Of a stretch of DNA of 64,000 nt, positions 10,752-57,770 are shown in pieces. The stretch is from a virus. Taxonomy: Duplodnaviria > Heunggongvirae > Uroviricota > Caudoviricetes. The translations under genes were made by a program, and so were the position numbers. Within the stretch, counting starts at the first letter, position 1; every line of letters starts with the position of its first letter. The stretch spans positions 4,857-68,856 of the IMG/VR virus record IMGVR_UViG_3300021254_000022; one strand, given 5' to 3'. The notes under the pieces are model-generated. The model searched no databases. It worked only from the letters and a program-made list of their open reading frames with translations, and had not been told where the DNA came from.

Positions 10752-10830
10752 GAGCCGGCCGCGCACATGAGTCTTTCCGTCTTCAAAATGAAAAAATGCC
10801 GCTCGTTATTTTTGGCCAAATTGATGCTAT
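10752..10830 (+). repeat. GC-rich conserved intergenic element, copy 1 (CCGGCCGCGC ... AAAAAATGCCGCTCGTTATTTTTGGCCAAATT)
   Basis: about 60 nt homologous to 57691-57770; both lie ~70-100 nt upstream of a gene start. Confidence 0.45.
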
Positions 10831-10896
10831 TTATTCATTATATTTTTTATGGATAATAGATAAATAGTTTCTATTTTTTTTAATGGAGGAAAAAAT

Positions 10897-11670
10897 ATGA
10901 TTAGTTTAGTTGCAAGTAATGGCGCTGGAGGCGGCGTTAAAAAATATTTTTTTGATACTGTTGATGACTTCAATAATTTTGTAATTAATTCTCCTAATAT
11001 TGCTGTTGGAAGTGCAGCTTATATAGTTGAAAGTGGAGAAACTTATGTTTTAAATATAAAAAAAGAATGGAGTCTTACTGAAGTTCATGGCGGTGGTAAT
11101 AATCAAGGAGCTGCTGGTAAAGACGGAAAGTCTGCTTATGAAATAGCAAAATCTCATGGCTTTATAGGAACTGAAGAAGAATGGCTTGAAAGTTTAAAAG
11201 CTTCAATTTCAGAAGAAGAATTAAAAACTATTATAGAGCCTCTTATTCAAATAAAAGTTGATAATATTTTATATAATAAACCAACGCTTACTCTTAATTC
11301 AGAATATGAATTAAGAAAAGTTTTGGAAGTTAATACGTATGAAGAAATTTTTATTAGTTTTATTGAAGATATTACTTTAACAGATAATTTTGTTGTTCCA
11401 GAAGGAAAGAAAATTATTATTAATATGGATGTAGATAATACTTTTGGCCTTGATGGACATACTATTGATGTTTATGGAGAACTTCAAATATTAAATGTTG
11501 ATTTTTTTGATTCAGATGAAAAATTTCTTAATATATATGATTCTGGTAAAGTAACTTCTATAGAAGATCTTTCTGATTTTGTTAATATTATAGGAGAAAA
11601 TGCTCAATATCAACCAGAGTCTAATTCAAAAGAAGAAAATCCATCTGATGGTGAAAATGAAAATTCTTGA
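10897..11670 (+). CDS. tail-fiber-like protein (GKDGKSAYEIA...GTEEEWLESLK motif)
   Basis: motif typical of phage tail-fiber/collagen-like proteins; RBS aatggaggaaaaaat. Confidence 0.5.
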   Translation: MISLVASNGAGGGVKKYFFDTVDDFNNFVINSPNIAVGSAAYIVESGETYVLNIKKEWSLTEVHGGGNNQGAAGKDGKSAYEIAKSHGFIGTEEEWLESLKASISEEELKTIIEPLIQIKVDNILYNKPTLTLNSEYELRKVLEVNTYEEIFISFIEDITLTDNFVVPEGKKIIINMDVDNTFGLDGHTIDVYGELQILNVDFFDSDEKFLNIYDSGKVTSIEDLSDFVNIIGENAQYQPESNSKEENPSDGENENS

Positions 11671-11721
11671 TTTTATAAAAAAAATATGATATTATAAAAA
11701 TAATAAAGGAGGAAATGCCTT

Positions 11722-13473
11722 ATGCCAATGACAGCAGCATAGATGAATACTTTAAAAACTGCCATAAAAAATGAATTTTAGCGTAGAGCAAATCCTCGCG
11801 GCGGATCTTTAGCTGGGACTGTCGGAGTAACCGCTTTTTCTACTACTCCTGCAGCAGGAGGTATTATATATCAAGAACAAGGTAATAAAACCCTTGGTGG
11901 TTTATTGCTTGTAAAAGATATTTCTCATACTTATACTCCTTCAACAGGAAATAAAATTCCTCCTGGTTTTGATTATACTGGATTAAATAATTTTGTTAAT
12001 ACTTTAGCAAATGAATCAATAACTGGTTCATCATCTTCATGCCGAGGAGGTTGTACAGGTTTATGTGTAGGAGACTGTTATAGTTCAGCAAGTGGAACAA
12101 CAGGTTCTATTAAAGGTTGCTCTGGCTGCGCTTCTTGGTGTTATGGATGCTCAGGACGATGTGGTAATAACTGCACTGGAGGTTGTCAAGGTTGTAGTGC
12201 ATGTGGAGGTAATTGTGCTTCAGGCTGTCAAGGCTGTACTGGCTGCGGATCTGGATGCGGCAATGGTTGTTCAGGATGTTCTGCACGTTGTGGAGCAAAT
12301 TGTACCGGAGGTTGTTCTGGATGCACCGGAGGTTGTGGATCTTCATGTTCAGCAAGATGCACTGGATGTGCCGGATGCGGAGGCGATTGTGCTTCAGGTT
12401 GTCATGGTTGCACTGGATGCGGAGGCAATTGCGCTTCAGGTTGTCATGGATGCACAGGATGTGGATCTGGATGCGGCAATGGTTGCTCAGGATGTAAAAG
12501 TAATTGTGGACAAAATTGCGGTGGACAATGCTCAGGCTGTGGAGGCTGTTGTAGCGGAACTTGTCATAGTCGTTGTTATGGTTGTTCTTCAAAATGTTAT
12601 AACAGTTGTTCTAGTGGATGTAATGGATGCAAAGGTGGATGCCAAGGTTGTTCTGCTTCTTGCGGTTCTGAATGTGCTTTTGGCTGTTCTGGAGGATCTG
12701 GATGCGGCACTTGTCAGGTAGGGTGCTCTGGAGACTGTTCAGGCTGCGGAGGTTGCGGTCGTGGAGGCTGTAAAGGTTGCTCTGGAGGCTGTGGAGGCTG
12801 CTCTGGAGGTTGCTCAAAAACTTGCTCTGGTACATGTGTAAATTCTTGTGATACTGGTTGCCATAAAGGTTGTAAAAGTAAGTGTGGTAAAAGCTGTGAA
12901 GGAAATTGTGGTAACAGTTGTAAAGGTCATTGCTCAGGATGTACAAATTGTGGAAATGGATGTGCTGCAAGATGTACTGGATGTACTGGAGGTTGCGGAG
13001 GATCTTGTTCTGCAAGATGTACTGGATGTACTGGAGGCTGTGGATCTTCATGTTCTGCGAGATGTACTGGATGTACCGGCTGTGGTAGTGCTTGTGCTGG
13101 AGGTTGTAATGGATGCTCTGGACGTTGTGGAGCAAATTGTACTGGAGGCTGTTCAGGATGTACTAATTGTGGAAATGGATGTGCTGCAAGATGTACTGGA
13201 TGTACTGGAGGTTGCGGAGGATCTTGTTCTGCGAGATGTTCTGGATGTACAGGATGCGGAAATAACTGTACCGGATGTAATGGATGTACAGGCACATGTG
13301 GAAATAATTGTTCAGGTACATGTGGAAATACTTGCTCTGGATGCGGATCGGGATGTCAAACAGGATGTACTACAGGCTGTAGTGGTGCATGCACTAATGC
13401 TTGTAGTGGTACGTGTGGTGGCAATTGTACTGGAAGATGCTTTGGTAGTTGTCAAGGAACAACAATGACTTAA
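11722..13473 (+). CDS. 583-aa Cys/Gly/Ser-rich tandem-repeat protein (about 150 Cys; repeats like [16 protein letters not shown]), 2 in-frame TAGs near the N-terminus
   Basis: strong RBS ataaaggagg + ATG 11722; TAGs at 11740 and 11785 in frame with ORF 11905..13473. Confidence 0.5.
12966..13240 (+). repeat. near-identical intragenic tandem DNA repeats (~54-nt units) within the Cys-rich gene
   Basis: tgtactggatgtactggaggttgcggaggatcttgttctgcaagatg recurs at 12966, 13021 and 13189. Confidence 0.6.
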
Positions 13474-13501
13474 TAAATATAAAGATAAAAAGGAGTTTTT
13501 T

Positions 13502-13801
13502 ATGAAGCAATTAATTAAAACAATTCATGTTGATAATCAAGATATTATTGATCTTCTTGAAAGCCTTCAATTTGAAGTTGAAAGTAGAAAAGAAGTAATA
13601 GGATTCTTAATTAGCAGTAATGGAATTAATTCAGAATCTTTTAGAAAATATGAAAAAGAATATCAAGAATTTTATATTAAATATCAAACAGCAAAAGAAG
13701 AATTTGAAGAAGCATATGTAAAGCCAAATATTAGTGAAGAAGATGGATATGTCAATTGGGATTTAGATTTTCAATTAAAAGAAGTTAAAATTTATATATG
13801 A
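13502..13801 (+). CDS. hypothetical protein (99 aa) between the Cys-rich protein and the radical SAM enzyme
   Basis: ORF; ATGA overlap with the downstream gene. Confidence 0.45.
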   Translation: MKQLIKTIHVDNQDIIDLLESLQFEVESRKEVIGFLISSNGINSESFRKYEKEYQEFYIKYQTAKEEFEEAYVKPNISEEDGYVNWDLDFQLKEVKIYI

Positions 13802-57306: not shown

Positions 57307-57397
57307 ATTAATAACTGGGGAGGAAAATCAACTCCGCAAATTAATATAAAAGATTATGAGTTTAAATCAATTTATTATTTTTAAGGAGGAATAATCA

Positions 57398-57601
57398 ATG
57401 TTACAAATTAATAGTACATCTAAAAACTTTGATGGACAAAGTTTAGTTAATGAAGAACCTATTGTTTTCTTAAATGGATCTATTACAAATGATAACTTTT
57501 ATGTTAGCCTTAGTTCTTCAGATATTGATGCTATAAAAACTTCTAAAGCTGCTGTTTTAGCAGATATTGAAGAATTCCTTGATGCTATGTTAGGTGCATA
57601 A
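57398..57601 (+). CDS. hypothetical protein (67 aa)
   Basis: ORF with RBS aaggagg. Confidence 0.45.
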   Translation: MLQINSTSKNFDGQSLVNEEPIVFLNGSITNDNFYVSLSSSDIDAIKTSKAAVLADIEEFLDAMLGA

Positions 57602-57657
57602 AGCGTTATACTGATAAATCCAGCGGGGACTCATGAAAAAATATTGTTAATTTAATT

Positions 57658-57688
57658 GGGAAGATCTTATGATCTTCCCATTTTTTTC
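57658..57688 (+). terminator. rho-independent terminator
   Basis: GGGAAGATC-ttat-GATCTTCCC + T-run. Confidence 0.6.
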
Positions 57689-57690
57689 GT

Positions 57691-57770
57691 TTTATCTGCT
57701 CCGGCCGCGCGCGCTCCTTTTATCGTTTTCCAAATCAAAAAATAGCGCTCGAAATTTTTGGGCAAATTCT
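57691..57770 (+). repeat. GC-rich conserved intergenic element, copy 2
   Basis: CCGGCCGCGC ... AAAAAATAGCGCTCGAAATTTTTGGGCAAATT, homologous to 10752-10830. Confidence 0.45.

Follow-up and report, generated by a model that had tools for sequence, protein, structure and literature searches.

A conserved 68-bp element with GC-rich boxes, present in two copies in an uncultured rumen phage, as a putative multipartite protein-binding site

What does a short GC-rich intergenic sequence do when an AT-rich phage genome carries it at two very different places, one described as upstream of a tail-fibre/Cys-repeat operon and the other as upstream of a Dda-like helicase operon? The original prediction had proposed operators for a phage regulator, a recombination signal, or a packaging signal. 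We analyzed a 64-kb window (the whole stretch of DNA under study) from the genome of an uncultured rumen phage of approximately 185 kb; together with approximately 14 kb of extra flank on the same contig, approximately 78 kb of the genome was scanned for copies of the element. The phage belongs to a clade known only from metagenomes, whose members have genomes of approximately 170–190 kb, an SPbeta-like replication module, and 18 tRNAs, and read TAG as sense. A search of cultured phages found no close relative.

Both segments were present where predicted and were refined to cores on the + strand, copy A at 10755–10822 and copy B at 57701–57768, which align ungapped and share 51 of 68 positions. 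Elsewhere in the whole window, on either strand, no ungapped match to copy B exceeded 34/68, and 60 dinucleotide-preserving shuffles of the window gave a best match of 39/68 (mean, 34.7). A degenerate 3' box of 32 nt matched twice in the window against 0.00 expected, and CCGGCCGCGC was found three times exactly and four times with at most one mismatch against 0.08 expected. The third exact 10-mer (54730–54739, − strand) was rejected as a copy: it is coding (LRGRA codons) and has unrelated flanks, and relatives encode the same LRGRA residues with other codons, indicating a codon coincidence. The description of the segments as GC islands was also confirmed, in that they are two of only approximately 19 stretches in the 64 kb with a 16-nt window of at least 80% G+C; comparison with the tRNA and ORF lists placed the other stretches mostly within tRNAs or coding sequence. 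The suggested search for further copies, using an nhmmer profile of seven versions, returned exactly two, A and B, in the window and the 14-kb flank, and neither nhmmer nor a relaxed bipartite regular expression found extra copies in the window, the flanks, or the replication modules of distant relatives. The features of the two loci are as follows.

10684–10724, + strand: terminator-like AT-rich hairpin followed by 9 T, just 5' of copy A (identified by eye)
10744–10754, + strand: possible 5' extension of copy A, GCATAAACTGAG-like (alignment inspection; L019 and L021 keep GCATGAACTGAR)
10755–10822, + strand: copy A core, 68 nt (profile, alignment, and shuffle comparison), with CCGGCCG at 10755–10761, the variable stretch at 10762–10777, CGTCTTCAAAAT at 10778–10789, the A-tract at 10791–10796, GCTCG at 10801–10805, and the T-tract with GGCCAAAT at 10809–10821
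10834–10857, + strand: weak promoter-like sequence 3' of copy A (identified by eye; not called by the sigma-70-type scan)
10897–11670, + strand: 257-aa gene directly 3' of copy A, with a motif of approximately 45 residues shared with PHROG tail-annotated families
57657–57688, + strand: intrinsic terminator of the preceding unit, with a 10-bp stem followed by a T-run, 13 nt 5' of copy B
57701–57768, + strand: copy B core, 68 nt (profile, alignment, and shuffle comparison), with CCGGCCG at 57701–57707, the variable stretch at 57708–57723, CGTTTTCCAAAT at 57724–57735, the A-tract at 57737–57742, GCTCG at 57747–57751, and the T-tract with GGGCAAAT at 57755–57767
57779–57807, + strand: promoter of sigma-70 type for the Dda-like helicase unit, with TTGATT and TATAAT 17 nt apart and a TG upstream of the latter
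57839–59029, + strand: Dda/RecD-like helicase gene, 3' of copy B

The shared layout thus comprises, at fixed spacing, CCGGCCG, a variable stretch of 16 nt, CGTnTTCnAAAT, an A-tract, GCTCG, and a T-tract, and every copy lies on the coding strand between a terminator and a gene start. Copy B is part of the SPbeta-like replication module, where it is flanked by RecJ and the Dda helicase; it precedes the promoter and gene of the helicase, as predicted, and the −35 hexamer begins 27 nt after GCTCG. In relatives, hairpins of different sequence occupy the position of the copy B terminator. At the position equivalent to the 5' extension of copy A, copy B has ATCTGCT. The hairpin 5' of copy A was missed by the consensus terminator scan, which needs at least three G-C pairs; it is swapped for an unrelated hairpin in L019 and missing in L021. 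Downstream of copy A are the hexamer TTCATT (10834–10839, 28 nt after GCTCG) and TGGATAAT (10850–10857), at non-canonical spacing. The predicted position upstream of a tail-fibre/Cys-repeat operon was correct only in part: the 257-aa gene has a tail-protein motif, and the Cys-repeat gene has its own promoter-like site, a repeat-family member at 11661–11702, so that copy A directly precedes only the 257-aa gene. A homologue search with this gene matched only the motif of approximately 45 residues and gave no orthologous loci, and a look-up of identical proteins returned the same strain only.

The element was conserved in related metagenomic phages, whose A and B loci yielded nine distinct versions. 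Counterparts of copy A occurred at the same junction in L019 (19607–19673) and L021 (11809–11867), and L016 (1–62) had the element before a homologous tail-motif gene; orthologues of copy B were found in L005, L006/L007/L013, L008, and L012/L014. All nine versions had an unchanged net length: CCGGCCG always preceded GCTCG by 46 nt, the invariant blocks remained in register, and the 16 nt after CCGGCCG varied freely in sequence at constant length. Because the blocks are invariant in register around this freely varying stretch, the pattern resembles that of a multipartite binding site. The similarity could also have come from a shared upstream gene fragment; this was not the case, because the variable columns had no 3-nt periodicity (12/13/14 by position modulo 3) and the copies had neither a consistent ORF nor a shared start codon.

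At the helicase locus, the element was 90, 84, and 71% identical to those of L005, L008, and L006, respectively, the upstream terminator region 82, 15, and 58%, and the 9-nt spacer to the −35 hexamer just 33–44%. In five versions (copy B, L005, L008, L006, and L021), the −35 hexamer followed GCTCG at exactly 27 nt, a spacing based on one orthologous series and one independent junction, that of L021, a rearranged strain in which the element precedes a different gene and a promoter of a different family. In copy A and L016, the −35-like hexamers were weak and located at 28–29 nt. Phages with helicases 58–61% identical to that of the window have a similar sigma-70-type helicase promoter and lack the element, which indicates that the element is an add-on and that this promoter type does not require it.

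A pattern scan of JGI metagenomes gave six loci: three helicase-locus copies (one duplicating L007), one new A-type copy (L016), and two chance matches in GC-rich sequence with no relation to the phage loci, which were discarded. IMG/VR contained no match to two motif patterns and none to the helicase. Across 185,579 reference genomes, the element was not found and only chance matches occurred, so there was no evidence of host origin, and a host-derived sequence or prophage element was rejected. In bacterial and archaeal genome contigs, the strict pattern had 0 matches and the loose pattern 31, none above 18 bits and nearly all covering only the part of the profile inside the searched pattern; true copies scored 54–76 bits, except for the most diverged, L021, at 38 bits.

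These features are most consistent with a multipartite protein-binding regulatory site that may act on the adjacent promoter, a reading that we favor tentatively, at somewhat under an even chance. The element would then be a double-stranded-DNA recognition site of several short boxes, neither RNA nor gene. A sequence-specific protein of the phage or the host, probably oligomeric and bound along a single helix face, would cover CCGGCCG, CGTnTTC, and GCTCG, whose centers are approximately 22–23 bp apart, with the center of GCTCG approximately 32 bp (approximately three helical turns) from the −35 hexamer. The bound protein would modulate initiation at the adjacent promoter, and the A/T tracts flanking GCTCG (CAAAAAT, 8–10 nt, ATTTTTG) would lie roughly where contacts of the RNA polymerase alpha subunit (UP elements) occur. 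Protein binding is inferred from the DNA, and the bound protein might activate or repress; at copy A, activation is suggested because the 257-aa gene has no recognizable consensus promoter.

The sole sigma factor seen in the phage is RpoD-like with regions 2–4 (region 3 present), consistent with the TTGA-N17-TATAAT promoters found throughout the window, and it follows that the GC boxes need not themselves be a promoter. Promoter repeats occur in the window in 11–12 copies, and the copy-B promoter belongs to a six-copy family (D12). The prediction of an operator for a phage regulator fits the anatomy of the element, with its invariant boxes, rigid spacing, fixed 27 nt to the −35 hexamer, and lack of RNA structure, but no binding protein was identified. 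A link between the element and the two wHTH/HTH proteins named in the original prediction is purely conjectural; the protein encoded at 49258–49608 scored above the Pfam HTH_27 threshold, and the protein at approximately 46403 had no significant HTH match. Several observations count against the regulatory reading. Of the approximately 20 promoters in the window, the element accompanies just two, and the genes that follow, one for a tail-motif protein and the other for a helicase of replication, would not normally be expected to share timing. The A-locus element keeps its place beside the tRNA/non-coding block 5' of it even where the gene 3' of it is a different one, so that simple ownership by the downstream promoter fits poorly.

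A sigma-70 UP element is an A/T-rich tract immediately 5' of the −35 hexamer, at about −40 to −60, with the consensus AAAWWTWTTTTnnnAAA. The corresponding tract of copy B, AAATTTTTGGGCAAATT, lies approximately 11–27 nt upstream of the −35 hexamer, or roughly at −63 to −47 if transcription starts approximately 7 nt after the −10 box, and its resemblance to the consensus is partial, being shifted by approximately 4 nt with the tract broken by GGGC. The sites of the phi29 regulator p4 upstream of late promoter A3 are among the nearest known parallels in layout. The p4 target is 5'-AACTTTTT-15 bp-AAAATGTT-3' (PMC1904284). Like those sites, the element is a protein-sized double-stranded-DNA array upstream of a −35 hexamer, has A/T tracts arranged as an inverted repeat around a central core (CAAAAAT, 8–10 nt, ATTTTTG), and belongs to a phage with an AT-rich genome and promoters like those of Firmicute sigma-A. 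Its polarity is reversed, however, its spacer is only 8–10 nt, and its most conserved parts are GC boxes, which p4 sites lack; a phi29 p4 operator was rejected on account of the opposite polarity and shorter spacer. As a putative regulatory site, the element appears to be a fresh case of an already known kind of site, whose function here we infer from sequence. It overturns nothing: large phages can be expected to carry conserved sites for protein binding between their terminators and promoters. In a metagenome-only clade, a conserved 68-bp site with invariant boxes offers a concrete experimental handle.

An unlikely alternative is that both copies bind a replication initiator, serving as origins or as one origin and a fork-arrest site, in a manner resembling Bacillus phage SPP1. 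In SPP1, oriL lies in the replication module and oriR is intergenic in the late region, bracketed by transcription signals, and both have direct repeats beside an AT-rich unwinding region (PMC6316719). Similarly, the 78 kb of the rumen phage contain exactly two copies: one belongs to the replication module and the other to the non-coding junction before the tail-motif gene, with boxes beside AT-rich DNA. CG boxes occur every 22 bp (CCGGCC, CCGTCT, and CCGCTC at 10755, 10777, and 10799, respectively) and are followed by very AT-rich DNA, and distant relatives do without the element at the helicase locus, which would be compatible with an origin. However, the three boxes are only weakly alike (common part, CCGnYY) and are therefore poor iterons, so that the element differs from oriL and oriR in having no clear iterons, and the DNA 3' of it is AT-rich, as is every spacer in this genome. 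No gp38-like initiator or other homologue of a known origin-binding initiator was identified. GC skew was positive with no inflection at either site at 2-kb resolution, a weak test because of coding-strand bias, all ORFs of at least 80 aa (TAG read through) being on the + strand. The fixed 27 nt to the −35 hexamer, another difference from SPP1, would be unexpected in an origin unless transcription primes replication. Priming by transcription occurs at T4 oriF and oriG.

We also consider it doubtful, if worth stating, that the copies are either paired replication control sites (an origin in the replication module and an initiator-bound site for fork stalling or mode switching at the start of the tail region, as proposed for SPP1) or the recognition site of an undescribed phage factor co-regulating the replication unit and a host-range gene. 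If true, either would give these uncultured rumen phages, as a clade, their first defined cis-acting control element.

It is rather improbable that the block of terminator, element, and promoter is a PeSL-like module-junction cassette whose main evolutionary role, regardless of what it does in regulation, is to supply homology for the swapping of neighboring gene modules. PeSLs combine terminator and promoter motifs and lie at the boundaries of indels (PMC4122927). As in T4-type PeSLs, a composite of terminator hairpin and promoter stands between genes where the gene content or order of close relatives differs (PMC4122927; PMC2839356). At the A locus, both this arrangement and the junction location match: identity between close strains falls from 94–96% in a 500-nt non-coding block to 69–75% in the element, unrelated hairpins are inserted or missing just 5' of it, and the gene order of L021 is rearranged at it. 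The A copy of L019 is nearer to the B copies (78%) than to copy A of the window (76%), and three contigs (L019, L016, and L008) end at or inside the element. Such breaks are to be expected in any case, because the tail-protein-like genes just 3' of them vary between strains. PeSLs, moreover, are many-copy and conserved in the promoter and stem-loop, whereas what is conserved in the rumen phage is an additional GC-box core of 68 bp that separates terminator from promoter, seen twice in 78 kb. Two copies that are 75% identical with short exact runs would be a poor substrate for homologous recombination, and the promoter repeats, which are more numerous (11–12 copies) and more similar, are better candidates. 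A module junction would account for the location of the element but not for its invariant boxes. The proposed recombination signal receives only indirect support, in that copy A lies exactly where identity between close strains drops and gene order differs, and the A locus marks where close strains exchange the module to which the tail-motif gene belongs. With two co-oriented copies 47 kb apart, neither of them shown to be near a terminase gene, a packaging signal is unlikely.

Very doubtful is the reading that some unidentified sigma factor or RNA polymerase recognizes the element itself as a bipartite promoter, with CCGGCCG as the upstream box and CGTC as the downstream box; the helicase would then have tandem promoters. 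As in −35/−10 architecture, the spacer between the invariant boxes is always 16 nt long whatever its sequence, and the 257-aa gene after copy A lacks a consensus sigma-70 promoter. CGT is typical of the −10 box in promoters of ECF sigma factors, which also have AAC in the −35 box and a spacer of 16–17 nt. The upstream box, however, lacks the AAC of such promoters, and an ECF-type promoter was rejected despite the 16-nt spacing and CGT, the only phage sigma factor being RpoD-like with region 3. A search for CCGGCCG (at most one mismatch), 15–17 nt, and CGTYY found no further sites in approximately 78 kb, few for a promoter class, and conservation runs 35 nt past the putative −10 box. For a sigma-54 promoter (GG and GC 12 nt apart; TGGCAC-N5-TTGC), only copy A of the window (TGGCCAAATTGATGC) fits; by inspection, the GC is not conserved in copy B, L005, L006, L008, and L016. 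Inspection also showed that a DnaA box, Spo0A box, CodY box, CcpA cre site, sigma-28 promoter, SPO1 late promoter, and transposon-like inverted ends were not conserved across the copies.

Least probable by far is a small RNA, RNA leader, or micro-ORF: the element sits after a terminator and before a promoter with no promoter upstream of it, single-sequence folds were no better than shuffled on either strand (z-scores of −0.47 to +1.44), RNAalifold gave just a 6-pair hairpin with 0 compensatory changes, no Rfam family covered either copy at gathering or E-value thresholds, and a micro-ORF was rejected because the variable columns show no codon periodicity and the copies have no common start codon or ORF. 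A weak GCTCGA/TTGGGC hairpin is nevertheless predicted in most versions, copy B is open in all three + frames, and copy A is overlapped by an ORF of 29 codons.

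The original prediction placed two GC-rich elements of about 60 nt in intergenic spacers of the window, and both were confirmed at those places. Alignment delimited a 68-nt core for each, with copy A preceding a 257-aa gene and copy B preceding the Dda-like helicase gene.

Features of the window
832–876, 5301–5345, 15147–15191, 24612–24656, 49196–49240: promoter-family sites (examples)
35212, 46318, 51622, 57779, 60304: promoter-family sites (second group of examples)
about 10684–10724: hairpin followed by a 9-T run, upstream of copy A (read by eye)
10755–10822, plus strand: copy A core (68 nt)
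10897–11670: 257-aa gene, downstream of copy A
15314–15403: tRNA with anticodon CTA, called tRNA-Pyl by ARAGORN
57657–57688: intrinsic terminator, ending 13 nt before copy B
57701–57768, plus strand: copy B core (68 nt)
57779–57807: strong sigma-70-type helicase promoter (TTGATT, 17 nt, TATAAT, TG upstream)

The two cores were identical at 51 of 68 positions without gaps, whereas the runner-up ungapped match to copy B in the whole window (both strands) reached 34/68 and no match exceeded 39/68 when the window was shuffled 60 times with dinucleotides preserved. The degenerate 32-nt box at the 3′ side matched twice against 0.00 expected, and CCGGCCGCGC matched exactly three times, with four matches at one mismatch or fewer against 0.08 expected. 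The third exact 10-mer (54730–54739, minus strand) was not a copy of the element: its surroundings were unrelated, and it represented LRGRA codons in a conserved 369-aa ORF, for which relatives use other codons. The proposed search for further copies, performed with a profile HMM of seven element versions on the window and about 14 kb of additional flank from the same contig (together about 78 kb of the roughly 185-kb genome), returned copies A and B alone.

Conservation in related phages was found at both loci. Metagenomic helicase homologues showed 76–91% identity, and the element occupied the same place in every fetched contig reaching upstream of a 78–89% identical helicase (L005, L006/L007, and L008). 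Scanning JGI metagenomes for the DNA pattern gave a further helicase-locus case, L012/L014, and also L016, in which the element precedes a homologue of the 257-aa gene. In the close strains L019 and L021, reached via the left flank, it follows a tRNA array and a non-coding block of about 500 nt, as does copy A. Nine distinct versions kept the blocks CCGGCCG, 16 variable nt, CGTnTTCnAAAT, AAAA, GCTCG, and TTTT in register at constant length, one of them through a compensated +1/−1 indel. At the helicase locus, element identity between the window and L005, L008, and L006 was 90, 84, and 71%, respectively; the 9-nt spacer up to the −35 hexamer was 33–44% identical and the promoter 86–95% identical. 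These data demonstrated that the element is genuine and conserved, a cis-element in a phage clade about which little is known. On sequence comparison it is a clade-specific addition, because relatives sharing 58–61% helicase identity carry a comparable sigma-70-type promoter before this gene but lack both the element and the terminator there.

The predicted helicase promoter, from which the helicase gene would be transcribed, has its −35 hexamer beginning 10 nt past copy B. The distance from GCTCG to the −35 hexamer of the downstream promoter was exactly 27 nt in copy B, L005, L008, L006, and L021. The L021 junction, where this offset recurred independently, has a downstream promoter of the other promoter family and a different downstream gene (Rv2632c-like).

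The placement of copy A upstream of a tail-fiber/Cys-repeat operon held in part: the 257-aa gene that follows shares a motif of about 45 residues with PHROG families that carry a tail-protein annotation, but the Cys-repeat gene farther downstream has a separate promoter-like site within 11661–11702. This Cys-rich ORF (11722–13473, plus strand) consists of dozens of repeats (TGY GGN ... units) from families D1, D3, D7, D9, and D10 and contains two in-frame TAGs. The non-coding block (10148–10650, plus strand) lies directly 3′ of tRNA-Gln, has raised G+C (40–47%), ends in a hairpin and T-run (about 10618–10650), and is 94–96% identical in L019 and L021; it had no Rfam match and a fold z-score of −1.64, and is a candidate undescribed phage ncRNA. 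A tRNA-like sequence at 8985–9068 (plus strand), conserved in L021 and not called by ARAGORN, scored 34.9 bits (E 9e-6) against the tRNA-Sec model, below the 47-bit cut-off; its anticodon loop reads CUUGAAA, the variable arm is long, and the D arm is poor. Close strains are not collinear here: a block comprising promoter, tRNAs, non-coding region, and element lies before the Rv2632c-like gene in L021 (10750–12437) and after it in the window (8560–10900).

We tentatively interpret the element as a multipartite site on double-stranded DNA that would bind a protein and act on the neighbouring promoter, since short invariant boxes, rigid spacing, and a freely varying stretch are a signature of protein recognition. 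Box centres were 22–23 bp apart and the GCTCG centre was about 32 bp from that of the −35 hexamer; these distances are whole helical turns, which would place the boxes on one helix face. Inverted-repeat A/T tracts surround GCTCG roughly at the positions of alpha-subunit contacts. The phage sigma factor is RpoD-like and matches the TTGA-N17-TATAAT promoters throughout, so it is not necessary to regard the GC boxes as a promoter in their own right. We infer that a putative protein bound at the element would modulate the adjacent promoter, in either direction; activation is suggested at copy A, because the 257-aa gene has no usable consensus promoter (just TTCATT at 10834 plus TGGATAAT at 10850, spaced non-canonically). 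Most simply, the element is a further instance of phage promoter-proximal DNA with putative protein binding. It would be more interesting as paired replication control sites, or as the site recognised by a new regulator that connects replication genes with a tail-associated, possibly host-range, gene.

A pair of origins like that of SPP1 is unlikely. Compared with the SPP1 layout (PMC6316719), one copy lies in the replication module, the other lies in an intergenic stretch of the late region that is flanked by transcription signals, and repeated boxes adjoin AT-rich DNA; however, the boxes resemble one another weakly for iterons, no homologue of an origin-binding initiator turned up, and the offset is locked to a promoter. 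GC skew showed no inflection at either site, which says little where coding-strand bias dominates. We consider a PeSL-like junction cassette improbable, although identity between close strains falls from 94–96% in the non-coding block to 69–75% in the element, hairpins are replaced or missing in these strains, L021 has a changed gene order, and three contigs end at the element: two copies with 75% identity are a poor recombination substrate, and the invariant boxes are left unexplained. The CCGGCCG-N16-CGTC architecture would fit a bipartite promoter for another factor, but it lacks AAC, and neither a cognate sigma factor nor additional copies turned up in the roughly 78 kb covered, which makes this quite doubtful. 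An RNA or micro-ORF is highly improbable: both strands folded no better than shuffled controls, the alignment fold was a single weak 6-pair hairpin without compensatory changes, no Rfam family covered either copy, and variable columns were spread 12/13/14 over codon positions without a common start codon, which also disposed of a shared gene fragment as the source of the similarity. The strict pattern had no match among 185,579 reference genomes, and 31 loose-pattern matches were unlike the element as a whole, arguing against host-genome origin.

Exact protein matches placed the window on a 184,958-bp metagenomic scaffold (ENA ERZ28612963, sample SAMN02144230), and the same phage occurred in JGI 3300002641 and GCA_001684375.1; neither cultured phages nor IMG/VR yielded a close relative. 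TAG appears to serve as a sense codon in this phage, because no plus-strand ORF in the whole window ends in TAG and conserved genes hold in-frame TAGs; RecJ, a 908-aa ORF, a GIY-YIG endonuclease, and others contain such codons. One of the 18 tRNA genes has anticodon CTA, and the ENA gene calls for this contig already extend across TAG. Replication genes form an SPbeta-like module (YonG_N, YorF, YorH, DnaB, RecJ, Dda-like helicase, and Pol III alpha subunit), which includes a wHTH protein (49258–49608) that exceeded the Pfam HTH_27 cut-off and matched a PHROG family of annotated transcriptional regulators. Two very strongly conserved promoter families, TTGATTTTTTTAAAAAAAATATTATATAATATATATAGAAAG (11–12 copies) and TTGATTTT...TATGATATAAT (6 copies), may correspond to two temporal classes. 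About 6 kb to the left of where the window begins, the same contig (L018, 3242–4075) encodes an RpoD-like sigma factor of 277 aa that has regions 1.2 and 2–4; in L020, a related locus, an HNH endonuclease gene lies immediately upstream of the sigma-factor gene. Positions 18179–18207, between tRNA-Gly and the next ORF, form an isolated stretch of very high G+C that contains an inverted repeat (GGGCGGGGCATCCCGCCC). The GIY-YIG endonuclease ORF (46730–47722, plus strand) contains six in-frame TAG codons; GIY-YIG, HNH, or NUMOD3 genes occur elsewhere in related loci, and in L011 one of them interrupts the gene for Pol III alpha.
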